Positions 16,014 through 48,274 of a stretch of 64,000 bases of DNA are shown in pieces. The translations under genes and the position numbers were made by a program. The notes under the pieces were generated by a model. The model worked only from the letters and a program-made list of their open reading frames with translations. It searched no databases and was not told the origin of the DNA. Source of the DNA: Hoeflea sp. (GTDB taxonomy: Bacteria > Pseudomonadota > Alphaproteobacteria > Rhizobiales > Rhizobiaceae). Every line of letters starts with the position of its first letter. Within the stretch, counting starts at the first letter, position 1. The DNA lies in NCBI RefSeq assembly GCF_040216675.1, contig NZ_JAVJOR010000005.1. One strand, 5' to 3'.

Positions 16014-16073
16014 GATTATAAGGGCAGGCATGCTAACATCATTGTGCCCTAGCCCAGAAATCGAGCTTCAGCC

Positions 16074-25648: not shown

Positions 25649-26053
25649 TCATACACGTCGCCTCGACTGGCGGTGCAAGTGTATCAGCGCGAGCGCGCAC
25701 GATCTAATGAAAATATTGAAAGTCGAGGGTATCTATCCGCTTGCACTCAAGGCTAGAGATAATGCTGCTAAGAAGCCCCGGCTTTCATCCAAAAATACTA
25801 TGTCAAGCGGCTGCGTACATCGCTTGGACACTCAGCCAACTTCAGTACAAGGATCGGCACGCCCGGGCGTTGGCAAAATATGCTATATGAATCCCCTAAA
25901 TCAATCCGTCGTAGAGGAAGAACGTCGTCGCATGGTTGACTTGTCTAAGCGGGAAGCCATCCAAATGAGGATGATCTCGTTGAATGCACGTATTGGAAAC
26001 TAATTGGCGCAGCGAAGCCGGCGAAACGGCCGGATTCGCACATCGCTAATGGA

Positions 26054-26118
26054 GTGTCCGCTAAGCGCCCCCAAGTCGGGCGTTGAGCGGTCTGACGTCG
26101 CATCCTAAAAGTGGACAC
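26054..26118 (+). repeat. Cluster B repeat with imperfect terminal inverted repeat
   Basis: gtgtccgct (26054-26062) ... agtggacac (26110-26118); collinear with 21857-21917. Confidence 0.7.
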
Positions 26119-27931: not shown

Positions 27932-28008
27932 TCCAAAACCTGACCGGACGCCTTGGCGGAGCCCATTAGGGAAATCGGTGTGTGCTTGACCCATAAGCGT
28001 TGGTGCCT

Positions 28009-30012: not shown

Positions 30013-31982
30013 GCGAGCCCTTCCCCAGCATTGCGCGTCGCGTAATCTATCGTGTCGACGACATAAGGCGGCAGCGCCGCCCGGAGCTCATCTGCGGAAA
30101 GACGCCCGCGTGCCGACGCGCGATCCAGAAGCGCCGCCAGATATTGGGCGGCGATCGCCTTTGAGGCGCCGCCTCGGAACTTGGCATAGACCGATGTGCT
30201 GCGCCGCTCCGGGTCTAGGCCAGCAATGTCCCGGAAGCTTCGCATGGAGGATCGTACGACATCTGCAATGGTCGCTCGCCCGGCGTGGATGCGGGCATCG
30301 GCTGCCGCAAGGTCAGCTGCGATCCAGACCTCGCGGGCAAGCCCAAAATGCGCAAGATCATATTCGAGCGTCCATTCATCCGCGACGAAGGTGCGGACCG
30401 ACTGCCCCGTTGCGCGCGCCTCGATCGAAGCGCGCAAGGTAACGAGACCGTCCGCGTCGAAATCATCCTTCTTCCGCCATTTCCTATTGTTTTTCGCGGG
30501 GACCGAGCCATCAGCTGCCTTGAGTCCAAGCATGGCCGGTGCGCAGTCGGGCATCACGTCCATGTCAGTCATACAAGCGACCGGAATATTGAGTAGCGCC
30601 TTCTCAGCCTCCGCGCGCCGTTGGAAGATGCGGCCGTAACGACCGAGTCCCGTGCCGCCGGCATTGACGACTGACACGCCGTGACGCGCCAGATCACGGC
30701 CAATCAGCCGGGCGAGAGTCGGCAGCAAAATGTTTTCCGCGTCATCCTCGACGATAATGACCCCGCGGGCGAAGAAAAGGTTTGCCCTGGTTGCATCGAG
30801 GAACCGCTCGAGAAATGCGTAGTCCGCCGGGTCAAGCAAGGTATGCTCCGGACCCATCGGAAACGCACGGCCTCCACGTACGAGGACGAGGTTTTCAAGC
30901 TTGAGTGACGAGGCGAGCGACGGGCTGTGCGTTGTCATAACGACCTGTAGCCCGTGCTCGGCGCCCTGATCCACGGCCGCCTTCTGTTTCAGGAAATCGA
31001 CCAGCAGGTGTTGTCGCTGAGGATGGAGGTGAGCCTCGGGCTCTTCGATAAGGAGCGCGGGAAACCCATCGCGCTCCTGGCTCAAGAGCAGCAGCTCGGA
31101 GGCCATGAAGAGTAGGTTGTTCGAACCGAGCCCACGTCCCGGCGGCGGGTCCGCGACACCATCGTCGCGCAGATCGAGCTCGAGCTTCTCAAGCAGCTGC
31201 CGCAGCCGGGCGGCTTTGTCGCCGCGCGCGCCGCTGACGGAGATCGTACCTTTGAGGGCGTCGCCTTCGAACGAAAGCTTTGCGAGATAGTCGTCGTTGA
31301 GGCGTGTGCGCGCGCCACCGATCCCGGGCTGCCGCTCGAGCAATTCATTGGCGAAGTCGCCGATGCCCAGGACACTCAAGGTCGCGGGATCGTCCGGAAA
31401 TGCGGCCGGGTCGAAATCGACGCCGCCGGTCGCGATCTCCTCGGTTTGCTGGAGGATCTGCGCAAGGCGCGAGCCCCGTCCTGCGGAAAGCGCCTGATCG
31501 GCATCGCGCAACGGACGGAGATAGGTCGTACAGAGCAGCGCCCGTGCCGCGGCCTCAAGCGCCGGCCCTGTGCCTGACGCGCCGGAACGGCATTCAACGT
31601 TTGTGAATCGTCGCGAAGGCCCGCGAGACCCCGCCGTCGCCTGCCAGTGAAGGAACAGGTATGCCTTACCGTCGAGATATGTGAGGTGTTCAAGGAACGC
31701 GCCACAGTCGCCTGGGCTCAGCGCATCGAACCGGAGCAGGATACGGATTTCGTTTCGGGTCCCGCTTCCATCCGCAGGCTGATGAAAATCAGCTTCTGCA
31801 ACCCGGAAATACTCCTGCCCGCGCGTCCCAAGCACAAGCCGAATGGCGTCAATGATCGCGGTTTTACCCGAATCATTTTCACCGACAAGAGCGGCGATCC
31901 CTGCCGGCAAGGACAGGCGAAACCCGGCGTCGCCTTCGCCAAACGTTCGGAAATTCTCGATTCTGATTTCAGCCAGTCGCAC
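30009..31982 (-). CDS. gajA: OLD-family ABC-ATPase/TOPRIM nuclease, Gabija GajA
   Basis: GENDSGKT, LLIEEPEAHLHP, TTHSP, TOPRIM IIVEDDAE and TDMD; directly upstream of a UvrD helicase. Confidence 0.8.
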   Translation of the reverse strand: MRLAEIRIENFRTFGEGDAGFRLSLPAGIAALVGENDSGKTAIIDAIRLVLGTRGQEYFRVAEADFHQPADGSGTRNEIRILLRFDALSPGDCGAFLEHLTYLDGKAYLFLHWQATAGSRGPSRRFTNVECRSGASGTGPALEAAARALLCTTYLRPLRDADQALSAGRGSRLAQILQQTEEIATGGVDFDPAAFPDDPATLSVLGIGDFANELLERQPGIGGARTRLNDDYLAKLSFEGDALKGTISVSGARGDKAARLRQLLEKLELDLRDDGVADPPPGRGLGSNNLLFMASELLLLSQERDGFPALLIEEPEAHLHPQRQHLLVDFLKQKAAVDQGAEHGLQVVMTTHSPSLASSLKLENLVLVRGGRAFPMGPEHTLLDPADYAFLERFLDATRANLFFARGVIIVEDDAENILLPTLARLIGRDLARHGVSVVNAGGTGLGRYGRIFQRRAEAEKALLNIPVACMTDMDVMPDCAPAMLGLKAADGSVPAKNNRKWRKKDDFDADGLVTLRASIEARATGQSVRTFVADEWTLEYDLAHFGLAREVWIAADLAAADARIHAGRATIADVVRSSMRSFRDIAGLDPERRSTSVYAKFRGGASKAIAAQYLAALLDRASARGRLSADELRAALPPYVVDTIDYATRNAGEGLA

Positions 31983-32175
31983 GTATCCCTCCGGGAGCGC
32001 TCACCGGCGTGATATCGCTCGAATCTACCATAGCGCGATTTTGGTGGCAGTGCATCCTCGGAGGCCAGCTGTCTTCAGCGAGATTCATCCGCTTTGTCGA
32101 GAGAAGCTCTGGAACGAGAGCGGGTCGCGACCCAGATGCCCCGGATACTCGAAGGCACGGATTCGGCGGATGAAC

Positions 32176-32270
32176 GAAGGGCGGCTTTAGCGGGATTGGC
32201 AACCAAAGCTGCCAGTCCCCTCCCGGCCCCAAACAAGCCGGACGGGAATGCGCCCCCATTCCGGTCGTAC
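32176..32270 (+). repeat. Cluster D of degenerate repeat units
   Basis: 32206-32231 matches 45275-45300 at 25/26; 32250-32270 matches 21868-21888 at 19/21. Confidence 0.75.
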
Positions 32271-32485
32271 AGCACTTACGGTGTCTATCCCAAAAGTCGC
32301 CATTCGCTTTGTTACTGCATGCAAAAAGTCTCAAGCGGGCCAAGAATGGTCATGATTTGCTCGCGCTACGGCATCCGCCTTGTTATTCATCCACAGCGCT
32401 TCACGCACTTCGCGACGCCTCCTTCTAGAGCAGCACTCCATTCCGACGTTCCACCCGTGGCTGTCGAACTGGACATGGCGGCCGA

Positions 32486-34474
32486 TCAATATGGCAGCGG
32501 GTGCATGGTCCCATCCGGCAGCATGACCGGCAGCCGCAGGTTCCTGATGCACGAGGTGTCCAGTTCAGCTTCCGGGTCCTCTATGAACGCCGCAGTGATG
32601 TCCTTGGCGCACTGGCTGTAGCGGATCGTGCCATGTCCGGACTCGGGCACCAGAACCACTTGAGCGTTGCTGTAGTTCTGAACCGCCAGCTCTCCCCAGA
32701 CCCCGGCGGTCTGGGTGTCGAGCTCGCCGTTCATCGACAGGACGGGCCGGTCGCTCGATCCGACGGTGGTCCAGTTCTCGCGCGGATGCTTTTCGAACAG
32801 GGGACAGTTCGTATCGAAAGGCGCGACCATCTCGACTAACGCCTCCTGCATCAGCGGGCCCCACGAGCCCTCTTCCTTCATCAGTGCGGCAAATTTCTCG
32901 CTCGAGTTCCAGCCGTCTGCATAATCCTCCTGGCAGGCGTAGAGGTAGAGCTGGAGATCGCCTTCCACGTCCTTCACCGTGCCTTCGTTGTCCTCCCGGA
33001 TCAGAGCAAAGACGCGGGCGACCTCCGTCGGGGAGAGTTGCCGGGCCAGGCCCGACAGATCAGCGGCGGAGTCCGGATCCATGTGGGTTTCGATCAGCTT
33101 GATCAGCAATGGCGCAGAGGGCTCCTTGAACCGCAGGTCGAGGTAGTCGCGACCGACCGCGAGCCGCGCGGATGGATCCGGGATGGCGCGGATCGCGGCG
33201 GCCAGTCGGTCATCGAATATCCCGGCCAGGTCGGCGCTGCGGGCATCTTCGTCGAGGTCGCCTTCCAGCAACGCTGCCGCGCGGGCGACCGTCTCTTCAG
33301 CGATCTTCATGTGGGCGGCGGCAGAGAGCATCGCCTCGACCTGGGCCATCTCGGCCTCGCTCAGTTTCGCGGCCTGGGCAGCGGCGCGAGCGGCCTCGGC
33401 GCTCGAGGACGCAGGCTTGGGCGGAAGCGCGCCCGACCGGAGCTGGTCCATCAGCGTGGTGTCGCCCTTTTCCAGCTGGGTGACCATCAGGGGGATATAG
33501 GGCGTCGCGGCGTTGTATTTGCCTGTGACATTCACGCGATCGTCGATCACCTCGAGCAGGGCATTCACGCCGATCTCTCCGTTCGGGCCGTCGATCGGGT
33601 TCGCGCCAAGCTTTTCGAACACTTCGAAAGTACGGGCGACGATATCGGGATAGGCCGCAGCACAGACCGGGTCGCGTTCGCAGGGCGCGAGGCTCAACTG
33701 GATCGGCGCCGAATGCGACTGCCAGAACATCGAGTACAGCGGCAGCCAGGGCGGCGCGTTGCCGTCGATCACCGCCGACCGGATGCCCGGCGGGTTCTGA
33801 CGCAGGATCTCCATCGTCAGCTTGGTGCCATAGGAGACGCCGTAGATATTGTAGCTGTCATATCCAAGCGCCAACATCACGGAGGGGACATCCATCGCGT
33901 TCTGCTCGGTGTTGATGAGCGAATAGTCGATACCCTTGGCCTCAAGCTCGTCAAGGCAGCTCTTGACGAACTCCTTCTCGAGGTTCGGAACATCGATCCC
34001 CTTGATGCGGGAGTCGATCACCGGCCCCAATTGTGCGCCCAAAGACGAATAGCAATCCATCTCGGGGGCGCTTGAATCCACGCCGCGCTCGTCAATGGCA
34101 ATGACATCGCGCCGTCCGCGAAGATGCTCGAAATAGCTGATCGTCTTGGCGACATTGCGGACCGTGCCGCTGCCCGGGCCGCCATGCAGGTAGATCACCG
34201 GGTCGGCGGCGGGCGTCAGCGAATGCGCCTTGTAGAGGTTGAATGCGATGTTGATCTTGGGGCCTTCCGGTGCGCGGTGGTCGAACGGCACCTCGACGGT
34301 GCCGCAAATAACAGTCTTGCCGTCGATCTCGGTGGGCGCGGTCGGGCGCGCGCAGGGAGCGATTGTGACCGGGTAGGCCGGGTCCGCGCCACCGGCTTTC
34401 AATGTGGAGAAAGCTTCGGGGTCGGGTTCTGCGATCAAAGCGGCGATAAGGGTAAAGATTTGCTCAGGCGTCAT
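32486..34474 (-). CDS. TAP-like (tripeptidyl aminopeptidase family) alpha/beta hydrolase, paralog 2
   Basis: YLHGGPG, DERGV, GVSYGT nucleophile elbow, ELDTQT, ESGHG; large helical insertion. Confidence 0.8.
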   Translation of the reverse strand: MTPEQIFTLIAALIAEPDPEAFSTLKAGGADPAYPVTIAPCARPTAPTEIDGKTVICGTVEVPFDHRAPEGPKINIAFNLYKAHSLTPAADPVIYLHGGPGSGTVRNVAKTISYFEHLRGRRDVIAIDERGVDSSAPEMDCYSSLGAQLGPVIDSRIKGIDVPNLEKEFVKSCLDELEAKGIDYSLINTEQNAMDVPSVMLALGYDSYNIYGVSYGTKLTMEILRQNPPGIRSAVIDGNAPPWLPLYSMFWQSHSAPIQLSLAPCERDPVCAAAYPDIVARTFEVFEKLGANPIDGPNGEIGVNALLEVIDDRVNVTGKYNAATPYIPLMVTQLEKGDTTLMDQLRSGALPPKPASSSAEAARAAAQAAKLSEAEMAQVEAMLSAAAHMKIAEETVARAAALLEGDLDEDARSADLAGIFDDRLAAAIRAIPDPSARLAVGRDYLDLRFKEPSAPLLIKLIETHMDPDSAADLSGLARQLSPTEVARVFALIREDNEGTVKDVEGDLQLYLYACQEDYADGWNSSEKFAALMKEEGSWGPLMQEALVEMVAPFDTNCPLFEKHPRENWTTVGSSDRPVLSMNGELDTQTAGVWGELAVQNYSNAQVVLVPESGHGTIRYSQCAKDITAAFIEDPEAELDTSCIRNLRLPVMLPDGTMHPLPY

Positions 34475-34495
34475 GGTTGGCTCCTTGCGGTCTGG

Positions 34496-36424
34496 TCACT
34501 GCGCCTTTGGCGGAATGTAGAATGCGGGTTTCAGTCCGGCGGCGCATGCCGCGTTCACCAGCACGGACGGATCTTCGATGAAGCCTTCGGCCACGTCCTT
34601 TGCGCATTGCGAGAACTGGATGACCGCGTGGCCTGCCTCGGGGAAGAGAACGGCCTGTCCGTTCGACAGAGTTCGCACGACCTTCTCTGCGGCGTCCGGA
34701 TCGGTTTGCGTGTCCTTGGTGCCCGACATCGCCAGCACCGGGATGTCACTGACCACCGGATCGTGGAAGCCCGCGCGCGGGTGTTTTTCGAAAAGGTCGC
34801 AGAAGCCGTACAGAGGCAGGGTCGACTTGCTCACGCCCGCGTCGAGGGCCGGGAAACGGTACTTGGCCGCCACAGCGGCGTAGCCCGCGCGCGTGTTGAA
34901 GGGAAAGTCCTCCTGACATGCAATAATGCCGAGCGTGAACATCATCCGCGACCGGGCGGTCAGGTTGGCCGCATCCGTCCGCGCCCGCTCGTAGAAAGCA
35001 TCGACATCTTCGTCCGACATCGCGGCGACTAGGCCAAGAAGGTGAGGTTTCTCTATGTCCGGCACATGGGTTTCGATCAATGTCTCGATGGCTGCGCGGT
35101 CGGGCGTCTGACCGATGAACATCGCGTAGTCCCGCAGCAATGCCAACAGGGTGTCCGCGTCCATGGTCCTGGCGACCCCGGACAGGGCGTCGTCCAGCAG
35201 CGCCTCGGTATTCAGCGCGCCAGACGAAGCCAGGTTGTCCGACAGGGTCGACAATAGCTTGGCGACCGCCGCTTCGGCGCTGCGCATTTGATCGATCTCC
35301 ATCAGGGCGATCTCCGCGATCGTCCTGTCGAGATCACCGAGGCCCGCACCGTATCGGGCGAGAACCGCGCCGGTGGTGGGAATGAAATTGAACCCGCCGG
35401 CCATCAGCTTTTCCAGCGTCGCCGTTTTCCCAGCAGCAAGTTCCGTGAAGACTTGCGGCAGGTAAGCGGTAAAGGGCATGGCGCGGCCATTGCTTGCATC
35501 GAGGATTTGCATAAGCACTTCCTGGTCTATGGCTTCACCCGCAAGCGTCAGCTTTGGCTCCTCTGCCAACCGGCGGCCTGCCGCGTGCACCGTCTCTTCG
35601 AGATCCGGATAGGCAGCAGCGCAGGCCTTGTCTGCCATGCAGTAATCCACCACCCAGCCCAACGCCTGATCGGGTGAAACGCCATTGGCATCGTAGGCCG
35701 GGCTGTCGACACGGCTGATGCTGTCGATAACAAGGCTTCTCAGGCCTTCAGGTGCGCTACGAAGGAGTTCCTGCCCCAGTTTGGTGCCATAGGAGATCCC
35801 AAAGGCGTTGTAGCCGGGATAGCCGAGCGCATCCATGATCGCGCGCACATCCCGGGCGCTCTGCGTCGTGTTGTAGAGAGACAGGTCGATACCGGAGGCA
35901 ACTGTTTCCGCCAGGCATTTGGCCAGCGGATCGTCCGGACCGAACAGCGTCTCCTGGTTGGCCTCGGCGAACTGCTGGAAATCCGCAGCCACCTCATTGT
36001 AGCAGGCAATTGTGCGATCCGAGATGCCTGCGCCGCGCTGGTCGAACAAGACCACGTCCCGACGGTCACGCAGGAATTCAAAGAGGGTCGCGTTCATCGG
36101 GATCTTCTGCACCGTAAATCCGCCGGGACCTCCGTGCAGATAGATGACCGGATCCGGTGCCGGCGCGGTCGAGTGTGACTTCAGCACCGCAAAAGCGAGC
36201 GGGATCGTCGTGCCGCCTGTGGCATTGTGATCCTCCGGCACGTCCACCCGTCCGCAGATCACTGTTTTGCCCTCGACCTCCAGCGGGCCAAGCGGACGCG
36301 GGCAGGCCTCAACCGTGACCGGATAGCGGTCATCGTGTCCACCCTCCTTCAGCTTGTCGAAAGCCGGTTCCGTCGCTGCCGTGAGCAGAGCAATGAGAAC
36401 TGGAAGGATCTGGTCTGGCGACAT
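34496..36424 (-). CDS. TAP-like alpha/beta hydrolase, paralog 1
   Basis: YLHGGPG, DQRGAG, GISYGT, TKDTQT, EAGHA. Confidence 0.8.
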   Translation of the reverse strand: MSPDQILPVLIALLTAATEPAFDKLKEGGHDDRYPVTVEACPRPLGPLEVEGKTVICGRVDVPEDHNATGGTTIPLAFAVLKSHSTAPAPDPVIYLHGGPGGFTVQKIPMNATLFEFLRDRRDVVLFDQRGAGISDRTIACYNEVAADFQQFAEANQETLFGPDDPLAKCLAETVASGIDLSLYNTTQSARDVRAIMDALGYPGYNAFGISYGTKLGQELLRSAPEGLRSLVIDSISRVDSPAYDANGVSPDQALGWVVDYCMADKACAAAYPDLEETVHAAGRRLAEEPKLTLAGEAIDQEVLMQILDASNGRAMPFTAYLPQVFTELAAGKTATLEKLMAGGFNFIPTTGAVLARYGAGLGDLDRTIAEIALMEIDQMRSAEAAVAKLLSTLSDNLASSGALNTEALLDDALSGVARTMDADTLLALLRDYAMFIGQTPDRAAIETLIETHVPDIEKPHLLGLVAAMSDEDVDAFYERARTDAANLTARSRMMFTLGIIACQEDFPFNTRAGYAAVAAKYRFPALDAGVSKSTLPLYGFCDLFEKHPRAGFHDPVVSDIPVLAMSGTKDTQTDPDAAEKVVRTLSNGQAVLFPEAGHAVIQFSQCAKDVAEGFIEDPSVLVNAACAAGLKPAFYIPPKAQ

Positions 36425-36554
36425 TGTTCGGCTCCATCAAGACTGCGCTGTTTTTGGCCAGCTGACCGGTGCCGTCGCGAAAAGACGACACCGGGGTCTG
36501 CTGGAAAGAGGCCACCTGCGCCATCTCGGACGAGGTGGACCGATTTCGAAGCGG

Positions 36555-37418
36555 TCAGAAAATGACGTACCCGCCTGTTCCATTCGTGAGCATCATTGTC
36601 AGTGTACTTCCATTTCCACTGCGGTTCCTGGCAAGCACCGCCGTGCCATGCGCTCCATTGACGCAATGGACCGTCGTGCTCTCGCTCCCAACCACACCCG
36701 GTGCATGCCGGAACAGGCCGGTGCAGGTCAGTCCGCCGCCGTTGATGGCCAAGGCATAAGCGCCTTCCCTGTGACCGAAAATCTGACCATTCAGCGAGCC
36801 ACCTCCGTACACCATTCCCGAACCCGAAATGCTGATGTTGCCGGCAGAGGCCGAAACGCTGTGATTTGCACCGGGGCTGTTCTCACGCAGATAGCTCTCC
36901 ACGGCATCGTGGGCCCTGGAACGTTGCGAGCGCGAGCAGGAACTGCCTGCGTTGATGGCCCTCCCGATCGGGTTGAACAGCACCGTGCAGCCACTCGCAA
37001 ACCGGACTTCCATCTCCCCGGTGTTTCGGGCGTGCAATTCCGGGATGTCGGGTCGGCCTGCTATTGTGCCGTGGGTGGGCGCGCCGCTCTCACGCAGGAA
37101 CCGGCCCGCTGCCCATCCCGATATCTGCCCGTTCGGCGTCTCGAGATGACACCACCTCGCATTGCCCGAGCCGCGACATCCGAGGTTTCTGAAGACGGCC
37201 CCGTTGGGCGCGCGAGCCACCACCGGGTTTGAGGTGCTCGGGCCCGAACGGACGTTTAGCGTATCATTCGAGGCCACGCCGGTGACCTGCCAGTAGTCGG
37301 GTCCCATCTGGGCGCTGGCGCTGCCGGGCAGGAGTGTCAGCCCCGCAGTCAGCGCGAGGGCGACACCTGCGACTGCTGATCTAAGACGCGGCGTAACGGA
37401 ATAGGTGCGAAACATCAT
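36555..37418 (-). CDS. Exported SH3b-domain protein
   Basis: Signal peptide ending ASA-Q; VTGVASNDTLNVRSGPSTSNPVV..NLGC..WC SH3 motif; two further Cys-containing domains. Confidence 0.8.
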   Translation of the reverse strand: MMFRTYSVTPRLRSAVAGVALALTAGLTLLPGSASAQMGPDYWQVTGVASNDTLNVRSGPSTSNPVVARAPNGAVFRNLGCRGSGNARWCHLETPNGQISGWAAGRFLRESGAPTHGTIAGRPDIPELHARNTGEMEVRFASGCTVLFNPIGRAINAGSSCSRSQRSRAHDAVESYLRENSPGANHSVSASAGNISISGSGMVYGGGSLNGQIFGHREGAYALAINGGGLTCTGLFRHAPGVVGSESTTVHCVNGAHGTAVLARNRSGNGSTLTMMLTNGTGGYVIF

Positions 37419-37466
37419 TGTCTTACCTCCACAAGATCTAGATTGGGCGACGAAGCCGTCGCGGCG

Positions 37467-38066
37467 TCATCGAGCCTGGCATGCGTGTTCTTCACCATAG
37501 GCATCGCTGACGCTGATGACGCCGTCGCCCATCACCAAACCGCCGGCGCTTCGCAGGTAGTAGGTTCCAGGAGCGTCGGGCGCGAGTTGTGCGCCGATAT
37601 AGACGCTGTCACCTTCCTCGACACGTACCCCGGGCAGAGCAGTCGGAAAGGTCTCCACGGTGAGCGCGCGCGGGCCGCAAATCAGCTCGACGATTTCCGA
37701 TGGCGGTTCAAGCATGAACTCTGCAACCAGTTCCGCCTCGCGGCGCAGGTATTCGGTTTCGACGCAGGCTCTCAGTTCGGGCTCTTTCCAGCACTCGTCC
37801 CGGCCGGATATCCAACCGCGCTGCATGGCGCGAAGGGTCTTGGTGGTTGCCTCTGCGTCGACATCCAGGCCTTCGGCGACGCTGACGGCTGCAGCGAAGC
37901 GGTCGGCCAGACGCCGGTCGAGCGCGGCCAGTTCGGGCTCGTCGCAGATCAGTTTTTCGGCGGAACTCTCGGCCTTGGCGCAGTCAAAGGTGGGGCCGTC
38001 CTGAGCCTGAGCGGCGGCGGGACACATGACCAGACAGGCAAGAATTGAAATGGTTCTCAGTGTCAT
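37467..38066 (-). CDS. LprI/DUF1311 lysozyme-inhibitor-like exported protein
   Basis: Signal peptide; PTFDCAKAESSAEKLIC..LAALD..QRGWI..RDEC..C pattern; start MTLRT after a GGAG RBS. Confidence 0.75.
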   Translation of the reverse strand: MTLRTISILACLVMCPAAAQAQDGPTFDCAKAESSAEKLICDEPELAALDRRLADRFAAAVSVAEGLDVDAEATTKTLRAMQRGWISGRDECWKEPELRACVETEYLRREAELVAEFMLEPPSEIVELICGPRALTVETFPTALPGVRVEEGDSVYIGAQLAPDAPGTYYLRSAGGLVMGDGVISVSDAYGEEHACQAR

Positions 38067-38089
38067 GGAGTTATCTCCTAAGTTTGGGT

Positions 38090-38863
38090 TCATGCAGCAT
38101 CCATCCCGGCACCCGCGGCCAGGGCAAAGATCGCCCAATCGTTCAGGATATGCGTACCCGTGGAGGCCCAGATGTTGCGCGTGATGATGAAGGGCATCAG
38201 CAGGATGATCCGGACAGGCACAAGTCCGATAAACGCCTGCGCCACGTTCCACTGGTAGGTCGGCAAGTGAATTGCCGCAAAGGGAATGGCGGCGACCAGC
38301 GCGGCAAGACAGACTGCCAGCTTGCGCGACACGAAACGGTCCAGCAGCGTCAGAACAGCCAGAAATGGAAGGATGGTGAAGATCTCTTCACCGAGCAACT
38401 GCACGGCACTCCAGGCGAAGATCAGAACAGTTTCCGGGGCCGAGGCCGAAGCAACCATGTCGCCGATCGGATTGCTCACAGTATGGAAATATTTGACCAA
38501 CAGGTTTCCCACGGTGATCGTCACGACAGCGTTCAAGACGAAAAATGCGATCATCAAGCCAAAGTCGCGCGCCGTTGGTGTTCGGAAGAGAGCCAGCGGA
38601 GCCCTTGACCCCGCAACGATTGCCAGTGCGCCCAGCGGGATCAAAACCAACAGAAACGGCGGGATGAATCCTGCCAATCCGCTGTGAAGCCGCAACTGTG
38701 TCGAGGTGAAGACCCAGTAGGCAGCGGCGACAGCAACAAGGACGATTATCCAACCGACCGGGCTGAGGCCGACCGGTACGCCACGGTAGTAAGGAAAATC
38801 AGTATTGGCCCGCTCGAAAAAGAATAATTCGGCACTGCGGGCCTTGTTGTCGTTCTGTGGCAT
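38090..38863 (-). CDS. CPBP/CAAX (Abi-family) intramembrane metalloprotease
   Basis: GEEIF, FAAIH, THILND motifs; multiple TM segments. Confidence 0.85.
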   Translation of the reverse strand: MPQNDNKARSAELFFFERANTDFPYYRGVPVGLSPVGWIIVLVAVAAAYWVFTSTQLRLHSGLAGFIPPFLLVLIPLGALAIVAGSRAPLALFRTPTARDFGLMIAFFVLNAVVTITVGNLLVKYFHTVSNPIGDMVASASAPETVLIFAWSAVQLLGEEIFTILPFLAVLTLLDRFVSRKLAVCLAALVAAIPFAAIHLPTYQWNVAQAFIGLVPVRIILLMPFIITRNIWASTGTHILNDWAIFALAAGAGMDAA

Positions 38864-38968
38864 GCCTGCGACCTCGATGGTTCTGGAAGCAACCCGAATG
38901 CTCCGGGCTCGTTTTTACAACAAGTATGGCCGGCACGATCCGAGACTATCCAGCATCCTGGATGCGGG

Positions 38969-39952
38969 CTATCCGTTCTGCGTTGGCGCTATCCGGATTG
39001 CGGACGAGGCCCTGCGTGCGCGGGCAAGCGTTGCTGATGGGGGCTCCCCGTAAGTTGACCGGTAAGTCGTTGCAAAACGACCCAGGTGCGAAAAGCCGCA
39101 GCCCAGCGCGACGCTGGTAACCGACGCTGTGCCACCCGATAGCAGTTGTGCTCGCGCATTTTCCAGCCGGTGCGCGGTGAGGCGCTCCCACGGTGTCTGC
39201 CCCAAGGTCATCCGGAACGCGTCCTGCAACTGGCGGACTGAGACGCCAACGGCTCTGGCAATGATGGGTACAGTTAGCGGTTCGCTCGAATGGGCATTCA
39301 TGTAATCGATCGCGCTTCCGACAAGCCCATGCTGTGAACTTCGCATCGGCAGGGTGTCGGTAGCTACCGCAAAAAGGCACCGGATATGTTCAAGCACCAG
39401 GGCCGCAAAAAGATCGGATGCCGGCCTATGGACCAGGGTCGGCGCAGAAGACTTGAGGTCAGCAAAGAGATAATCCATCAGCCCGCGAACGCCTGCCAAG
39501 GCCGTCGAGGCTATGGGAACGACAGGGCTCTCGCCAAGCTTGGGAAGAACCCCCTTTGTTTGATGTTTCTTCAGGGAGATTTTGGCCAGATTGGCCCTGA
39601 AGTCGCGGTGTGCGAGCCTGTCCACACGTGTCCATCTTTCAGATGGGCCGAGCGCGAGAGCGGTTCCTTCACCGATAACCTGCTCCCGGCGATCCATGCG
39701 CACCCTGGCAACGCCCCTGGTTGGCAGCATGACAGTTAGAAAAGCATCGTCGGCCAGGTCGATTTCATGGCCTGAGGAGACCACGCTCAAGAGACTGACG
39801 CCAATCACCGGAAACTGCGCGGATGCTACACGCAAGCAGCGGTTTCTGTCCCGCGTCATGTTGAACTGATCGGGTGCGCTGAACAGCAATGATCTGTAAT
39901 CGGAGCTGCGGCTCTCGTTTTCATCCCAGTGCTTTGAAGCGTAGTTCAGCAT
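38969..39952 (-). CDS. AraC-family transcriptional regulator
   Basis: C-terminal IARAVGVSVRQLQDAFR..VALGCGFSHLGRFATTYRSTYGEPPS; start moved to MLNYA. Confidence 0.9.
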   Translation of the reverse strand: MLNYASKHWDENESRSSDYRSLLFSAPDQFNMTRDRNRCLRVASAQFPVIGVSLLSVVSSGHEIDLADDAFLTVMLPTRGVARVRMDRREQVIGEGTALALGPSERWTRVDRLAHRDFRANLAKISLKKHQTKGVLPKLGESPVVPIASTALAGVRGLMDYLFADLKSSAPTLVHRPASDLFAALVLEHIRCLFAVATDTLPMRSSQHGLVGSAIDYMNAHSSEPLTVPIIARAVGVSVRQLQDAFRMTLGQTPWERLTAHRLENARAQLLSGGTASVTSVALGCGFSHLGRFATTYRSTYGEPPSATLARARRASSAIRIAPTQNG

Positions 39953-40271
39953 GGTCGCGCCGCCAGATTCTGCTTTCTCTAATTTAACGATAACAGAGAC
40001 AGCAGATTTGTTGTAGCTGCTCCGACAGCGAGATTGATGCTGATGTTTCAATCCTGCCGGTACTTGTCCGCAGATCGTCAGACTGGAACCGCTTTGACAG
40101 TCGGCAGATAAAATGAACGCAAATTGCCGGTGCCTTGTTTTCGAAGTGAAGTATCGGGTCAAAGCGGTGTGCAGACGGCCAACATTCAGGCTCCGCTTGC
40201 TATGAAACCTTTTGTGCGATCAAAAAGCGCTGTCGGAGGAGCATCGATCATTCATGGGTGGCGGCTTGAAC

Positions 40272-40604
40272 ATGGCAAGAATACTGGGCGCGATCACCGC
40301 CATTGCGGCGTGGACCAGCTTCGCCATAGCGTTGCTTATTTCCGGCAGCGGTGTCTGGACTATGAAAAGCCCGACCATGATCGTCAGCTCTTTGGTTGGT
40401 GCTGTTTTTCTCCTTGTTGGTCTGGTACTGCACAAGATAGGCCATGCCTATCGACCCCTTTACCTGGAACTCGACGGCTCTCCTGAAGTAATGCGCCTGG
40501 GGCGATGGCTTTACATTGGATGCGCCATCCTCCTTTTCGCACTCGTGTTCATCCTCCTTGGCGTCTTGTTCCGCCTGTCGGAGGGGTACGCGGTTTTCGG
40601 ATAG
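40272..40604 (+). CDS. Small three-TM membrane protein
   Basis: Three hydrophobic segments; start uncertain (40254 or 40272). Confidence 0.5.
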   Translation: MARILGAITAIAAWTSFAIALLISGSGVWTMKSPTMIVSSLVGAVFLLVGLVLHKIGHAYRPLYLELDGSPEVMRLGRWLYIGCAILLFALVFILLGVLFRLSEGYAVFG

Positions 40605-40686
40605 CACTGTTCAGGGTGACCGTTGCGACTTGCCTTCGAACTCCTTCGCAATCCGACAAACAGCAGCAATCGTCCTATGCGCTCCC

Positions 40687-41685
40687 TTATGAATTCCGCA
40701 TGATCACGAAATCAGTCGAAGAGCGGGTTTCTGGATGGGCGGGAAGATCGGTCAGCATCATGGTCGCGCCCGGATGCAGGTTGCGGGCAATCTGGCCGTA
40801 GACATCCGGCGGGATCACCAGCCGTGCCGTCACTGCGATTTCGCGCTGCACATCCACCGCCGCCTCATCGCCGGTTCCAAGGCCGATCGCTATCCAGTCA
40901 TAGACATGGGTTGCCGGATTCATCCCCTTGAGCAGGTATACGTGCGTGCCAAGCGGCAGACGCCGGTGCTCTATGCCGATACCGGCACTGATAAATTCCT
41001 TGCCGTTCTTGAGCGCGATCAACCGGCGGTCGGCGCTGCTGACGATTATGGCAAAGGCTTCGTCCCGTTCACCATCCTTGTCCCGAGGCAGGTTCTTGCC
41101 GGCAACGTTGCCCGTCATGGTTTCCACCGCCTGAAGGTCTGAGTTGGCCAGCACCAGCCCGGCATGACTGAGACTGCCGATTCCCGAGCGTGAATTGGTG
41201 ACGATGACCGGGGTGCCGTTGTGGGTCACACCGAAGAGCAGATCGGCAAAGGCTTTGGGAAGATGCACGCAGCCATGGGAACTGGGATAGCCCGGCAGCC
41301 CTCCGGCATGCAACGCGCAGCCGCCGAAGAAGAACTGACTGTCGGGCATGGCTGCGTTGTTGTAGGCTTTGGAATGATGCAGTTTTTCCTTTCGAAGCAC
41401 TGAAAACACGCCGGTCGGTGTCTCATAGCCCTTTCGCCCCGTCGACACCGTCGACACCCCGATTCGGATGCCGTTTCGGTAGACAAAGGCAAGCTGGTCA
41501 GCCAGCGACACCAGCACCGCCACCGGGCCGCCCGGTGCCCGCTCCGGATACCAGGACCACTCCCCTGGCTTGAGATCTGTGACGGGCTTCTCGGTTTGTG
41601 CGGAGCTGCCGCCATTGGCAGCGATGAGTGCTGCCACACCGCCGGTGGCAAGAAAGCCTCTGCGGGTTATCTTTCCCTTTTTCAT
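40687..41685 (-). CDS. Tat-exported L,D-transpeptidase (YkuD family)
   Basis: Twin-arginine TRRGFL; HAGGLPGYPSSHGCVHL catalytic motif; GGAG RBS before MKKGK. Confidence 0.9.
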   Translation of the reverse strand: MKKGKITRRGFLATGGVAALIAANGGSSAQTEKPVTDLKPGEWSWYPERAPGGPVAVLVSLADQLAFVYRNGIRIGVSTVSTGRKGYETPTGVFSVLRKEKLHHSKAYNNAAMPDSQFFFGGCALHAGGLPGYPSSHGCVHLPKAFADLLFGVTHNGTPVIVTNSRSGIGSLSHAGLVLANSDLQAVETMTGNVAGKNLPRDKDGERDEAFAIIVSSADRRLIALKNGKEFISAGIGIEHRRLPLGTHVYLLKGMNPATHVYDWIAIGLGTGDEAAVDVQREIAVTARLVIPPDVYGQIARNLHPGATMMLTDLPAHPETRSSTDFVIMRNS

Positions 41686-42068
41686 GCTCCTGCGCTCCTG
41701 TCCTTTAAAGTGACCGGCCCCCACCACGCCACTTCGAACGGCCTAGCCTGCCCACAGAATAATACTCATTTCCAGCTCAGAGCGAACCCTCGTTACTCAG
41801 AGATGTGATCGCCGTTGTGCTTCTGTCAGAATAGCAGATGTGGCTCCATCGTGCACGTTGCGGCCCGTTGATGGGCAACCGGTGTGCTATCCGGCCCCTG
41901 TTTGGCCACGCCGTGATCGAGCACACGGTCAGCAGTTTGAATTCGGCCTGTCTCTCATCCATACTCAGTTTCACAAAGGCCTCTCGAAGAAGCTGCCAGG
42001 ACGTGTTTTGAACGATTTGGCTGTCTCCCGCAGGGCTAGGCCACGAGTGGAGCGGGGAACCGTGTGCA

Positions 42069-44510
42069 ATGGAATCTGAGACGGGGAACCGAGCAAAATC
42101 ATGGGTTTCAGCGGCACTGATGATCCTGGCGTTGATGCTGCCTTTGCTCGCCGGTGCACCCACCGAAAGCCTTGCTCAAGAGAGCCCGGAAACAGACAGC
42201 AATTTGGAAGTCGTCGATCCTGCTGATCAATGGAACGAGACTGCGGCACGTGCACTGGAGGCTCTGCGCAGCGGGAAAGCCTCCAGCTCCGCCTTTGAAG
42301 TGTTGCGGCAGAAACTGGCTGACGAGCGTGACCAGGCCTTGGCTATTGCCGAAAGCGGCAGCATTTTATCCAAATCGGTTCAGGCACAGATTGACGCGCT
42401 CGGTGCTGCACCGGACGGTGACGGCAGCGAACGCGCGGACATCGCTGCCCGCCGTGCCGAGCTCAATGCATCCCTTGCGGTTGCCGATGCACCTGTAATT
42501 GCGGCCCGGGAGGCCTTTAACCGCGCAAATGTTCTGATCAGCGAAATTGATAGCGTCATCAGGGCGCGTGAGAGCGTCGAGCTTACCACTCTGCTGCCCA
42601 CGCCGATCAACCCATTTAACTGGGCCGGCGCCTTTGCTGAAATGCAGGACTATTTGGGACGCGTGCTGGTCGAATTCGAAAAAAGCATTGCCAACCCGTC
42701 CAAGGCAACCCCTCTCAAAATCCGCCTGATCGCTGCCGGTCTCCTGCTGGTGCTGTCACTTGCGGTGGTGTTCATCATCCTGCCCGTCACTCTCCGCTCG
42801 ATGAATGCCAGGGCCAGACGTGTCGACGCCAAGACAACACATTCAGGTTGGGGATTGCTGGCGGTGCTTGCGCGGCTGGTGCTTGCTTCGCTGGCAGGCA
42901 TCCTCGCCTATTCGGCCTTCAGCACACTGGACATTTCCTCCACCGCCGCGCGCTCACTGATCCGGGTGGTGCCGGCCATCGGGGCATTTCTGGTCGTCAG
43001 CTACTGGCTTGGCTACGTCATCTTTGCTCCGGATGCGCCCGAGCGCCGGCTTATGAAACTGCCGGATCATCAGGCCCGTACGGGCTTCTGGATCGTCATG
43101 GGCGTCGGATTGGTTCTCGTCGTCGAACTCGCCATTGAAGCATCGGAGAAGGACATGACCTTTCTTCCGGGCACTCATGCCGTGGCCAGTGTGTTTGCGC
43201 TGCTGCCAGGTGCGTTCCTGCTGTGGGTATTCGGCTCGATGGCACAACGTTCCACCAAGGCGCAGACTGAGAGCGACAGCATCGAGGACCCAAGCTACAC
43301 AGCAGCGCTGGTGCAGTTGCTGGCGCGGACACTGCAGGTGTTGGCCATAGCCATTGTGGTGCTGACGCTCTCCGGCTTTACCGCGCTGGCGCGGTTCGTG
43401 CTTTCGGGCTGTGCGCTGTCGCTGGGCGTCATCGGCATTCTGCTGGCCACCGACAAACTGATTGTTTCCGCGCTGGGACTGGCCGCGGGCGTATCCGGAC
43501 GGGAACATGACGAAACTCGCCAGAGTTTCCTGTCCATTGCCATCGGTCTGACGATGAGCATCGCCGCGTTGCCGGTGATCGCACTCATCTGGGGTGCCCG
43601 TCCGGCCGACATTTCCGAGTTTTGGCGTTTGATGACCGAAGGAGTGGTTGTCGGCGGAACCCGATTGTCAGCCACCGTCGTGCTTGTCTTCGCCTTCACA
43701 CTTCTTGCCGGACTGGTGGCGTCGCGCTGGCTGCAACGGTTCCTCGGATCCGCGGTGTTGCCGCGCACCCATCTCGACAGCGGCGCGCAATCCGCATTGC
43801 GGACCGGGATTGGCTATCTCGGAGCCACTGTGTCGTTGATGCTGGCCGTTGGCTTTGCCGGTATCGATCTGTCCAGCCTTGCCATCGTCTTCGGCGCGCT
43901 CTCCGTCGGGCTCGGCTTCGGCCTTCAGGCCGTCGTCTCGAACTTCATCTGCGGCATCATTTTGCTGATAGAACGTCCTTTCAAGGAAGGCGACTGGATC
44001 GAGGTTTCAGGCTACAGCGGCATCGTCCGCAAGATCTCTGTACGCTTTACCCGCCTGGAAACCTTCGATCGCGACGATGTCATCGTGCCCAATACGGATC
44101 TGATCACCGGAACGGTAAAGAACATGACACTGAGCACGATCACCGGGCGCGTGATCGTCCCTGTCGGCATCGCCTATGGAAGCGACATAGAGAAGGCGGA
44201 AAGTATATTCGTCGACATCATGTCGGCACATCCGGATGTCCTGCGAGAACCGGCGCCTGCCGTCTTGTTCAGGGGGTTGGGCGACAGCGCTCTCGATTTC
44301 GAGCTTCGCTGCTTCATTTCCAATGTCGGGCTGGGGCTGACTGTCCGGTCCGATCTGCTCGCCGGCGTCTACCGGGAACTGGACAAAGCCGGCATCGAGA
44401 TACCATTCCCGCAGCGCGATCTGCACATCAGGACATCCTCTGGTCCAACGGATCTGTCAGCGCAGAATCCCTCTGAAGCGGAGCCGACAACCTCTCCGCA
44501 ACCAGGGTGA
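42069..44510 (+). CDS. Large MscS-family mechanosensitive channel with periplasmic coiled-coil (DUF3772-like)
   Basis: GALSVGLGFGLQAVVSNFICG, LIERPFKEGDWI, IEIPFPQRDLHI. Confidence 0.9.
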   Translation: MESETGNRAKSWVSAALMILALMLPLLAGAPTESLAQESPETDSNLEVVDPADQWNETAARALEALRSGKASSSAFEVLRQKLADERDQALAIAESGSILSKSVQAQIDALGAAPDGDGSERADIAARRAELNASLAVADAPVIAAREAFNRANVLISEIDSVIRARESVELTTLLPTPINPFNWAGAFAEMQDYLGRVLVEFEKSIANPSKATPLKIRLIAAGLLLVLSLAVVFIILPVTLRSMNARARRVDAKTTHSGWGLLAVLARLVLASLAGILAYSAFSTLDISSTAARSLIRVVPAIGAFLVVSYWLGYVIFAPDAPERRLMKLPDHQARTGFWIVMGVGLVLVVELAIEASEKDMTFLPGTHAVASVFALLPGAFLLWVFGSMAQRSTKAQTESDSIEDPSYTAALVQLLARTLQVLAIAIVVLTLSGFTALARFVLSGCALSLGVIGILLATDKLIVSALGLAAGVSGREHDETRQSFLSIAIGLTMSIAALPVIALIWGARPADISEFWRLMTEGVVVGGTRLSATVVLVFAFTLLAGLVASRWLQRFLGSAVLPRTHLDSGAQSALRTGIGYLGATVSLMLAVGFAGIDLSSLAIVFGALSVGLGFGLQAVVSNFICGIILLIERPFKEGDWIEVSGYSGIVRKISVRFTRLETFDRDDVIVPNTDLITGTVKNMTLSTITGRVIVPVGIAYGSDIEKAESIFVDIMSAHPDVLREPAPAVLFRGLGDSALDFELRCFISNVGLGLTVRSDLLAGVYRELDKAGIEIPFPQRDLHIRTSSGPTDLSAQNPSEAEPTTSPQPG

Positions 44511-44578
44511 TTTCGTGCTCAACTCATCCCCATCAGGCCGGACCAATGGACGTGCTCAGGTGGCGCGGTGGCCCTTGA

Positions 44579-45100
44579 TTGTTTCTGCTGATTGCCGGTC
44601 TCCTGGCGCTTCACTTGGCGATTGCCACGAACGCGAGCCTCTTGAGGCGGCGTGCCGCAATCGCAATTGCCTGTCTGGCGGCATTGCCTCTCACATTAGG
44701 GCCAGTCGTTCCGATTGCCCATTTCATTCTTGAGGCCATACGCAGGCCACTTCTTTGGAGTGCGCAGACTTTCGCCGCTCTGCTTGTGCTTGCACTCGTG
44801 TCGCATCTGGCCATTGCAATGGAAGACGGGTACCAGTTGGTATCTTGGGTTCCCTTCTTTGGTAACCAGTTTAATCAAACCTTATTGCTGAAATCGCCAA
44901 TCTGGCTGTCAGACGATGAGCTAGGCCAGCCAACGCCAGGGCTGTGGGACGAACCAACCCATATCGGGAATTGGTTGGCAGCAGCAGCGGAGTGCGTCCT
45001 TCTCGCCTTTTCAGCATGGTCCATCCAGGAATTGATTGTGGTTTATTGCGGCTATCCGGTTCTCAATGCGGCCTTGGCACACGCGACGCTCAGCCGATAG
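44579..45100 (+). CDS. Hypothetical membrane protein
   Basis: Several hydrophobic segments; start uncertain. Confidence 0.45.
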   Translation: MFLLIAGLLALHLAIATNASLLRRRAAIAIACLAALPLTLGPVVPIAHFILEAIRRPLLWSAQTFAALLVLALVSHLAIAMEDGYQLVSWVPFFGNQFNQTLLLKSPIWLSDDELGQPTPGLWDEPTHIGNWLAAAAECVLLAFSAWSIQELIVVYCGYPVLNAALAHATLSR

Positions 45101-45203
45101 TGTTTCTGTTGCCAGACCGCTGCACTCTATGGGGTACCCGACCTCGGACTAAACAACATCTGAAACTTCGGACATCCGCGAACCTTTGCCGCAAAGAGAA
45201 TGG

Positions 45204-45310
45204 AAGTCTGCAATCGGCCTGACGCGACGTCGACAGTCAAAGGCGAATGTCTGTTTAACCGGCTTCGTTCCCACAAGCTGCCAGTCCGCTCCCGGCCCCA
45301 TTCCAGACGT
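45204..45310 (+). repeat. Cluster E of degenerate repeat units, just downstream of the second tyrosine recombinase
   Basis: aagctgccagtccgctcccggcccca (45275-45300) followed by ttccagacgt; matches cluster D. Confidence 0.75.
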
Positions 45311-45366
45311 TAAGTAAGATCAGCTTTAGCTGGCCGCACGTGCCCTAAGGGGATCATTCCTGCCCT

Positions 45367-46991: not shown

Positions 46992-47546
46992 TCAGCGACC
47001 ATTGGGCCTTCGCGCCTTGCAGACATCAACATAGCAATCGATCTCCGCCGGATCCCAGCGCGTTGAACCGCCAATCTTGATCGGCTGCGGGAAATCCGGA
47101 TCGTTGTTCTTCAGTCGCCATACGGCAGTGACGCTGGTGTTTAGCCGAACGGCGACGTCACCGACGCACATAAGCGGCCTAGGAATGACTGGGGCTGTTG
47201 GCTTCTGATGGTTATCTGCTGTTGAAGGTGTGGCTTCAACGGGCTCTAGGTCCGCATCAACTTGCTGGCGTTGAATTTCAGGCGACAAGGGTCCTGTTCT
47301 TGTAGGCTCTTTCTTCTGGCCGGGACCCGTCGGCGGATTGGACCGCGAGGACTGGGGGTGCTCAATAGGCCGTGGCGACCTGCCAGTCTCACGGGCCTGG
47401 CTCGCTTCCGCGTATGGGTTAGTGTGATTTTCTTCGGCATGCGGGACGGTCGGGGAGGAGCTTTCATGGAAAGTCAAATCATCAGGTGTTCTGGCATTGC
47501 ATTCACATGACGTTTCGCCACTGTGCCTATGGGAAGGCTTTCTCAT
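46992..47546 (-). CDS. AlpA-family regulator/excisionase with long N-terminal extension
   Basis: C-terminal LMCVGDVAVRLNTSVTAVWRL..FPQPIKIGGSTRW. Confidence 0.75.
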   Translation of the reverse strand: MRKPSHRHSGETSCECNARTPDDLTFHESSSPTVPHAEENHTNPYAEASQARETGRSPRPIEHPQSSRSNPPTGPGQKKEPTRTGPLSPEIQRQQVDADLEPVEATPSTADNHQKPTAPVIPRPLMCVGDVAVRLNTSVTAVWRLKNNDPDFPQPIKIGGSTRWDPAEIDCYVDVCKARRPNGR

Positions 47547-47965
47547 GTGCTTCGCCCCAGGCCGGCTTCATAAACCAGCAGCTCGGCAAGCACCCAACGT
47601 GTGGCGCCACTGCCTAGCTTCACTGGTTTCGGAAAAGCAGGGTTTTCATGAGTCCACCGCCAAATGGTGGATGGCGAAACTGCGTATCGCGCAGCTACCT
47701 GTTTGACGGTCAGGAAAGGACCGGAAGCTCCGCCAAAGGAACCATTTCCAGGTTCCGGCATCGATGTTGACGATCTGCTGCCTCGCCTTGATGCGGAGCC
47801 ATTGCCAAACGACGAAGCATCAGAGTTTTGCCGAGCGAGCGTAGGAGAAGCAACTGCTTGCGAGATCCGATCTACGTCATTTCGCGCAGATGTATCTGCC
47901 GAAGGCAGCTTCGCAGCATAGAAAAGATCAGTTTGTTTGGATTCGGGCGCATTCCGACGTGACAT
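47543..47965 (-). CDS. AlpA-family regulator/excisionase
   Basis: FLTVKQVAARYAVSPSTIWRW..FPKPVKLGSGATRW; stop overlaps the next start. Confidence 0.8.
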   Translation of the reverse strand: MSRRNAPESKQTDLFYAAKLPSADTSARNDVDRISQAVASPTLARQNSDASSFGNGSASRRGSRSSTSMPEPGNGSFGGASGPFLTVKQVAARYAVSPSTIWRWTHENPAFPKPVKLGSGATRWVLAELLVYEAGLGRST

Positions 47966-48181: not shown

Positions 48182-48198
48182 AAATGGCGGAGAGGAAG
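48182..48198 (+). repeat. att core at the tRNA-Ser 3' end
   Basis: aaatggcggagaggaag, identical to 15844-15860. Confidence 0.92.
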
Positions 48199-48274
48199 GG
48201 ATTCGAACCCTCGATACCGTTCCCGGTATACTCCCTTAGCAGGGGAGCGCCTTCGACCACTCGGCCACCTCTCC
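48185..48274 (-). tRNA. tRNA-Ser(GCT), CCA encoded
   Basis: GGAGAGGTGGCCGAGTGGTCGAAGG..CTCCC-CT-GCT-AA-GGGAG..long variable arm..GGTTCGAATCCC..CTCTCCGCCA. Confidence 0.97.

Follow-up and report, generated by a model that had tools for sequence, protein, structure and literature searches.

Repeated short junctions in a tRNA-Ser island of Hoeflea and the probable insertion of a 13-kb envelope gene block as a single unit

How did a 13-kb cluster of envelope-related genes come to lie between a Gabija defence system and a tyrosine recombinase gene, with an almost perfect 26-bp direct repeat at its two ends? The question is raised by a 64,000-nt stretch of DNA from Hoeflea sp. (contig NZ_JAVJOR010000005.1), which is referred to in its entirety as the window. 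The two repeat copies, AAGCTGCCAGTCCCCTCCCGGCCCCA at nt 32206-32231 and AAGCTGCCAGTCCGCTCCCGGCCCCA at nt 45275-45300, both lie on the plus strand and differ by a single mismatch (25/26 identical). An initial annotation of the window, which reported this repeat, took it to bracket one insertion, by which the whole gene cluster (here called the envelope block) had entered the locus. The coordinates and degree of identity were confirmed. No further copy of the 26-mer occurs in the window at up to three mismatches, and 100 dinucleotide shuffles gave 0 matches, i.e. none is expected by chance. As the duplicated scar of a single insertion the pair did not hold up: the cores also bound the Gabija block and, in a short form, two further blocks, and copies occur elsewhere in DNA of Hoeflea, Devosia, Rhizobium and Agrobacterium. 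A larger junction element (65-100 bp) is probably present twice, each 26-bp copy being its conserved core. Such elements, it is proposed with reasonable confidence, divide the region from 21.9 to 45.3 kb of a tRNA-Ser island into exchangeable blocks, and the envelope block was likely inserted as one unit.

The likeness between the two repeat regions exceeds the 26 bp, as some 35 nt on the left side and some 12 nt on the right can also be aligned if an insertion of 27 nt (AACAAGCCGGACGGGAATGCGCCCCCA), carried by the left copy between core and right flank, is allowed. Alignment of the copies gives a long form, which opens with a left box (GTCTGYTT) and, after about 18 variable nt, continues with the 26-bp core and a right flank (TTYCRGWCRTT); a spacer and GCGCCCCCA can precede this flank. 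In the short form, GCGCCCCCA and the right flank adjoin the left box directly. Clear junctions, all in the same orientation on the plus strand, are present at four positions, 21.86, 26.06, 32.2 and 45.3 kb (J0, J1, J3 and J4 of Table 1), together with a degenerate candidate at 27.98 kb (J2). Read leftwards from the 540-aa tyrosine recombinase (integrase) gene, the order is integrase, J4, envelope block, J3, Gabija, the questionable J2, a HEC-08-like gene pair, J1, a gene pair with a 1165-aa product, and J0.

Related sequences break off at these junctions. Among metagenome contigs, X11 shares nt 21868-32232 with the window (10.4 kb) at 99.9% identity, with 14 substitutions and one 39-bp deletion (nt 25812-25852), X1/X2 share nt 26068-32231 (6.2 kb) at 98.6%, and X14 shares nt 27999-32221 (4.2 kb) at 98%. 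After the core of the left repeat, each continues into different DNA. Their left breakpoints, 21868 and 26068, lie exactly on the short junctions J0 and J1, and 27999 lies on the weak look-alike J2. The left flank of X1/X2 at the J1 breakpoint, GACCGCTTCGCGC, completes a hybrid short junction. Within J3, relatives diverge at nt 32221-32232 and at 32248/32249, and at J4 homology stops at nt 45300 (L022) or 45306 (L032). In 6 of the 9 distinct cases, synteny breakpoints coincide with junctions.

The block that is common to other genomes spans nt 32249-45300/45306, its left end lying 17-18 bp inside the left repeat. It starts with GCGCCCCCA and the right flank and ends with the left box and core, i.e. 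a junction is present in two halves whose order is permuted. Since this is what a circle recombining at a junction leaves, the block was probably inserted as one unit. A JGI (Joint Genome Institute) contig, L032, carries nt 32249-45306 at 98.8% identity (over 13,058 bp) and has unrelated genes to the left and right; its left flank reads ...CTTCTGCTT/TGCGCCCCCATTCC, a short junction of the same form as J0, and on the right the core is followed by TTTCAGTCATTCGAG. A third context is found in seawater metagenomes (X1/X2/X4), where the block extends from nt 32248 to the right core at about 92% identity, and the right core is followed by AACAAGCCGGACCGGAATGCGCCCCC, the spacer that trails the left core in the window, i.e. 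the arrangement is a permutation. In L022/L023 the match is confined to nt 41557-45300 (84%), comprising YkuD to MscS, orf181 and a junction, and homology stops exactly at 45300. Two further matches have other ends: nt 32346-44704 at 91% in Hoeflea alexandrii (L011), with other neighbours and no junction, and nt 32346-40610 at 89.6% in a metagenomic Hoeflea (L012/L013), with a degenerate junction about 110 nt past the break. A side observation in L022 is an element of DUF3489, DUF2924 and large serine recombinase genes (nt 10950-13484), which starts about 230 bp past the junction ending the MscS-orf181 cluster; this spot attracts a second kind of mobile element.

As to the entry of the envelope block as a single unit between Gabija and the integrase, which the initial annotation had put forward, the entry itself is likely: the same 13.05 kb with the same ends is present in L032 and in the third context of X1/X2/X4, and relatives keep the Gabija side (98-99.9%) as far as nt 32221-32232, after which they have other DNA rather than the envelope block. 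A reading of the repeat as the scar of that one insertion was not supported, and the allele for which the initial annotation had asked, with gajA, one repeat and the same recombinase in succession, was not found among the relatives examined.

The whole arrangement is part of a larger island. A 17-bp direct repeat of the tRNA-Ser(GCT) 3' end bounds 32.3 kb that hold both integrases and the 26-bp pair, and an arm-binding tyrosine integrase is encoded at one end, as in tRNA-integrated islands of the P4 type. Tandem 12-mers near both island ends resemble arm-type sites. Two Logan assemblies and a metagenome-assembled genome (MAG) contig from NCBI reproduce the arrangement of the window at 99.97-100% identity. 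Because these independent assemblies show the same order, the arrangement is not an assembly artefact, and because their contigs cross the envelope block unbroken, the block appears to be single-copy. Both Logan assemblies stop at nt 16970, inside the 399-aa integrase gene, and at nt 48186-48214, at the tRNA 3' end; these shared end points suggest sequence common to other strains or elements in those samples. The host is Hoeflea-like, as judged from the AraC protein (95% identical to that of H. alexandrii) and the 12.4 kb of DNA at 91% identity.

Table 1. Coordinates of the island features in the window, from left to right (a slash marks the breakpoint within a junction)
Feature	Position (nt)	Strand	Evidence and remarks
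Distal copy of tRNA-Ser 3' end (CTTCCTCTCCGCCATTT)	15844..15860	-	Exact 17-mer, also at 48182-48198; 0.02 expected by chance
Tandem 12-mers, ATGTGGGGCTGG x2	15991..16015	+	Again at 48110-48134; 5 matches vs 0.28 expected
P4-type tyrosine integrase, 399 aa	16074..17273	+	Pfam Arm-DNA-bind_3, Phage_int_M, Phage_integrase; NCBIfam PRK09692
J0, short form	21855..21892	+	GTCTGCTTT/GCGCCCCCATACTGGTCGTAC; motif E = 5e-8; X11 homology begins exactly at 21868
Block C1	21868..26067	+	1165-aa (22151-25648) and 134-aa open reading frames (ORFs); in X11, absent from X1/X2
J1, short form	26053..26089	+	GTCCGCTAA/GCGCCCCCAAGTCGGGCGTT; X1/X2 homology begins at 26068
Block C2	26068..27998	-	365-aa HEC-08-like candidate defence protein and 205-aa ORF; 1.9 kb
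J2, degenerate, tentative	27975..28010	+	GTGTGTGCTTGACCCATAAGCG; X14 homology begins at 27999; resembles J0 by eye only
Gabija block	27999..32231	-	gajB 28009-30012, gajA 30009-31982; PADLOC, Pfam
J3, long form	32176..32274	+	Left flank, core 32206-32231, spacer AACAAGCCGGACGGGAAT, then GCGCCCCCA-TTCCGGTCGTAC
Envelope block, 13,052 bp	32249..45300	.	Pfam, hydropathy; same ends in L032 and X1/X2/X4
TAP-like hydrolases (two)	32486-34474, 34496-36424		Pfam Abhydrolase_1 + TAP-like
SH3b	36555-37418		Pfam SH3_3
LprI-like	37467-38066		Pfam
CAAX/Rce1-like	38090-38863		Pfam
AraC	38969-39952		Pfam, AraC-type helix-turn-helix (HTH)
orf116, hydrophobic	40254-40604		Hydropathy
YkuD	40687-41685		Pfam
MscS with DUF3772	42069-44510		Pfam
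orf173, hydrophobic	44579-45100		Hydropathy
J4, long form without spacer	45243..45311	+	Left flank GAATGTCTGTTT..., core 45275-45300, right flank TTCCAGACGTT
Tyrosine recombinase, 540 aa	45367..46989	-	Pfam Phage_integrase, SAM_4; stop codon 56 bp from J4
Two AlpA/excisionase-like HTH proteins (184 aa, 140 aa)	46992..47965	-	Upstream of integrase
tRNA-Ser(GCT)	48185..48274	-	ARAGORN, Rfam; 3' end (48182-48198) is the proximal island boundary

In the mechanism proposed here, a circular block would recombine, through the junction that it carries, with one present in the island beforehand, the crossover falling in or just past the ...GGCCCCA end of the core. For the envelope block, the joint of the predicted circle would read ...TTCCCAC-core-TTCCGGTCGTACAG, or would include the AACAAGCC...GCGCCCCCA spacer. 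A circular intermediate, and site-specific rather than homologous recombination, are favoured by a modest degree. That the 540-aa integrase is the enzyme is a plausible suggestion to which somewhat less than even weight is given, the alternative being an unlinked recombinase.

Several observations weigh against this explanation. The crossover point is ambiguous, as it could fall within the 26-bp core, the spacer arriving with the block as X1/X2 suggest, or in CCCCATT at nt 32254/45296, in which case a spacer-bearing junction would already have been in the island. J2 bears only a weak resemblance to a junction. Junctions also occur far from any integrase, both on plasmids and in chromosomes; the 65% integrase homologue of L008, which adjoins tRNA-Ser(GGA), shows none; and X11 has the Gabija blocks at 99.9% and no integrase match at 90% identity or above. 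Neither dyad symmetry nor a fold of the junction is statistically supported, and no circular form, excision joint or allele of gajA, core and integrase in succession was seen in the assembled contigs examined. Finally, the chromosome of H. alexandrii has the genes of the block with other boundaries and with neither junction nor repeat, which is the kind of differently bounded, repeat-free copy that the initial annotation had named as counting against its own proposal. It is read here as a non-mobile or ancestral chromosomal version.

A serious rival, though itself considered unlikely, dispenses with a dedicated system: the junctions would be a low-copy dispersed intergenic repeat, similar to repetitive extragenic palindromes (REP) or Rhizobium-specific intergenic mosaic elements (RIME), between copies of which RecA-dependent homologous recombination shuffles DNA, and the envelope block would have arrived by one crossover in the 26-bp core and its flanks. 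Copies do lie in unrelated intergenic regions without a nearby integrase, at least six of them on different X1/X2 contigs, and J3 and J4, with 26 bp of near-identity and similar flanks, are near the minimum that RecA needs. Several exchanges, however, involve only about 10 shared bp (TGCGCCCCCA), namely those at the left junctions of L032 and the X sequences and at J0/J1, and because this is too short for efficient RecA recombination the rival is disfavoured. The strict co-orientation of the four clear junctions in the island, which end beside the integrase, also argues against it, as does the core, which is kept across genera while the flanks vary and so suggests a protein-binding site. Marginally less probable still is the same site-specific exchange at junctions by an enzyme whose gene lies elsewhere in the genome, like XerCD in the case of dif modules, the 540-aa integrase serving only to integrate its own element. 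Cassette-like junction pairs on plasmids and contigs without an integrase homologue in reach, and the blocks kept by X11 without a close integrase copy, would fit; against this, three integrase lineages (80-100% aa identity) keep a junction-like sequence directly 3' of the gene, past which variable cargo begins at once, and the only array seen ends at the 540-aa integrase gene. It is, by contrast, highly improbable that the envelope block is in its native chromosomal place, with mobile elements inserted on both sides and the repeat marking their ends. The G+C content of the block (0.55-0.65 in 1-kb windows) does overlap that of the core region to the right of the tRNA (mostly 0.56-0.64), and its genes are chromosomal in H. 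alexandrii, but the 17-bp tRNA-Ser repeat pair encloses both the block and the two integrases, and the block has five other sets of neighbours (H. alexandrii, L012, L022, L032 and the X metagenomes), none of which includes the tRNA-Ser or porin gene.

Homologues of the 540-aa integrase with 80-83% aa identity (Rhizobium sp. NRK18 and metagenomes) retain the gene order orf249, HTH, orf184, integrase, and in L004-L007 a junction-like sequence is present just past the integrase stop codon, beyond which the cargo differs completely. The 140-aa protein encoded upstream of the integrase matches Pfam Phage_AlpA, and the 184-aa protein has an AlpA-like C-terminal motif by inspection; in close homologues, a 62-aa HTH_17 protein and a 249-aa ORF replace the 140-aa AlpA-like protein. 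In L004 (nt 11586-11685) a second copy of the final 22 coding nt of the integrase gene (82% identity) lies 78 bp further downstream and immediately precedes the junction-like sequence; a weaker version of this repeated 3' end is visible in the window and in L005. In the DNA examined, no att repeats were found around the integrase homologues, nor a second tRNA fragment in L008. The nearest integrase homologue of X1/X2 (about 80% nt identity) is on another contig, which runs at least 2.7 kb past its stop. A search of the viral collection with the integrase gave no match, and a truncated integrase in Hoeflea sp. G2-23 (L021) lies in a region rich in insertion sequences (IS) and is uninformative. 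The idea that X11 represents a two-integrase element opened at a junction failed, as no integrase copy at 90% identity or above is present and the contig does not continue into an L001-type locus. The repeat was also considered as an attL/attR pair of the 540-aa integrase, which was rejected, the integrase lying outside the pair and its homologues at L004-L008 having no exact copy.

A more far-reaching view, which is advanced only tentatively, is that the 540-aa integrase and the junction adjoining it act together as a capture platform, akin to that of an integron, for large cassettes of several genes. Junction-bearing circles of 2-13 kb would be inserted beside the integrase and stockpiled in order of arrival; the cargo would comprise whole defence systems (Gabija) and ordinary chromosomal operons, and the array would travel with the tRNA-Ser island, which has its own second integrase.

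Beyond the window, the exact core is rare. Among 185,579 reference genomes it occurs in two, a Hoeflea MAG and a Devosia MAG, in both in unrelated gene contexts, and it is found in four metagenome contigs that represent two distinct loci with unrelated neighbouring genes; a viral scan for the exact core pattern gave none. Further full or partial copies are present on plasmids of Hoeflea, marine Rhizobium and Agrobacterium pusense. The layout of a short junction, 3-5 kb and a long junction in one orientation is repeated in L017. Weaker matches to the short junction place it also in L036, which holds a helicase/ATPase pair (E = 6e-4), and in L035, where the match taken by itself is not significant (E = 0.8). 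The Devosia MAG (L002, nt 6345-6570) has two tandem junctions about 80 bp apart and further fragments, roughly 600 bp downstream of tRNA-Ser(GGA)-msrA and without an integrase; this is the same type of locus at which L008 has a 541-aa integrase element, and the tandem junctions may be a scar or an unoccupied target.

The nature of the junction itself was considered from several sides. Reading the 26-bp repeat as a tRNA 3' fragment was rejected, as it has no T-loop when read as T-arm and acceptor and ARAGORN was negative. A known RNA was likewise rejected: only the tRNA passes the Rfam gathering threshold, no credible match is seen up to E = 10, and the repeat folds no better than shuffles. Fold and duplex energies of the junction relative to shuffles gave z values from -1.9 to +1.6. 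In some copies the left box and the right flank have the look of inverted sequences; an attC-like fold of the two has no statistical support. A near-perfect palindrome, GACGGGAATG-CGCCCC-CATTCCGGTC, is found at nt 32242-32267, where the J3 spacer meets the start of the envelope block; it is shaped like a core-type recombinase site and is missing from the other junctions.

The content of the envelope block agrees with what the initial annotation listed between the repeats, i.e. two TAP-like hydrolases, SH3_3, LprI, Rce1-like/CAAX, AraC, YkuD and MscS proteins by Pfam, and two ORFs (orf116 and orf173) that are hydrophobic. The flanking genes were also correctly named, with GajA and GajB to the left (PADLOC) and the 540-aa tyrosine recombinase to the right (Pfam). 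The label 'envelope remodelling' is a putative one drawn from Pfam domains. The two TAP-like hydrolase genes are paralogues, sharing a 135-bp stretch (nt 33800-33934 and 35759-35893) at about 69% identity. The region from 21.8 to 45.3 kb has no transposase domain and no inverted terminal repeats, features by which a composite transposon or IS would be recognized. GajA and GajB, encoded side by side, make up a complete Gabija anti-phage system (PADLOC E = 1e-188 for GajA and 6e-167 for GajB, with the matching Pfam domains, ATPase and TOPRIM in the one and UvrD helicase in the other). In block C2, the 365-aa protein matches the PADLOC candidate HEC-08 (E = 6e-73), the pair spanning nt 26255-27966, and for the ORFs of C1 nothing matched in Pfam, NCBIfam or PADLOC. 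Among the plasmids searched, neither the island nor the Gabija block has a close counterpart: at near-identity only the tRNA was matched, and a more distant search yielded only coding similarity of about 66-68% to the Gabija genes.

To the left of the distal tRNA-Ser repeat, nt 1-15843 form a second mobile region of lower G+C content, which carries genes for a TPR/STAND-like NTPase (nt 968-3217), a resolvase (5255-5833), a type IIG restriction-methylase (7421-10534), ArdA (13158-13805) and a large serine recombinase (14460-15869), the 3' end of the last overlapping the 17-bp tRNA fragment. This region is probably a tandem island with its far end outside the window.

How complete defence systems and operons move between islands is largely unexplained, most cargo having no visible mobility genes. 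The cargo boundaries can here be read to the base: Gabija, a candidate defence pair and a 13-kb envelope operon are bounded by the same short junction, and each bounded block recurs with its own ends beside different neighbours in other bacteria. Should a recombinase act on the junctions, islands would have a simple route by which to take up and exchange modules of several genes, parts of the host chromosome among them, and the junction motif would be a practical marker for delimiting cargo in genomes of the Rhizobiaceae.

The layout resembles several known systems, but fails defining features of each. Accretion and cis-mobilization of cis-mobilizable elements (CIMEs) by integrative and conjugative or integrative and mobilizable elements (ICEs, IMEs) are known from ICESt1/3 of Streptococcus thermophilus (reviewed in PMC5704250). 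As in a CIME, a block without integration genes, bounded by recombination sites, lies beside an integrase-bearing element, and direct repeats of the sites separate the modules (PMC5704250); the envelope block has junction halves at both ends and no recombinase among its 10 ORFs, and capture or co-excision through the outer sites would yield exactly the layout seen here. CIME sites, however, are att copies at the 3' end of the target gene, whereas those described here are not the tRNA-Ser att of the island. Again, CIMEs are elements in decay, whereas the envelope block consists of ordinary chromosomal DNA and is one of at least four blocks that stand in line. Integrons (IntI, attI, attC) share with this locus a tyrosine recombinase with an adjacent site, followed by an array of co-oriented units (PMC3053210, PMC2727003), each of which opens with the end portion of one site, closes with most of its own site and recurs singly elsewhere; reading from the integrase, J0, J1, J3 and J4 are all on the plus strand (J2 tentatively so), J4 being 56 bp from the stop codon. 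Unlike integron cassettes, the blocks are 1.9-13 kb in length and have 2-10 genes on both strands with regulators of their own (one with AraC), the site lies 3' rather than 5' of the integrase gene, the integrase has 540 aa, and no folded-hairpin signal was found. The integrase matches no integron-integrase model, and NCBIfam gave only a weak, sub-threshold match to Xer/XerA (57 bits against a cut-off of 220). The dif modules of Acinetobacter plasmids are similarly recombinase-less, carry short conserved sites and are shuffled among replicons (PMC6449649, PMC13141974), but theirs are 28-bp XerC/XerD sites in alternating orientation on plasmids, whereas the junctions are GC-rich, co-oriented and chromosomal; by inspection, the junctions contain no AT-rich 11-6-11 dif-like site, the only palindrome being that in J3. 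Tycheposons, finally, likewise occur in marine hosts, in tRNA-linked islands that carry a tyrosine recombinase, with plug-in cargo cassettes and successive insertions that push older ones inward (10.1101/2020.12.28.424599), but their inter-unit repeats are partial tRNA genes, whereas in the window the inner junctions have another sequence and a tRNA fragment is found only at the outer boundary of the island.

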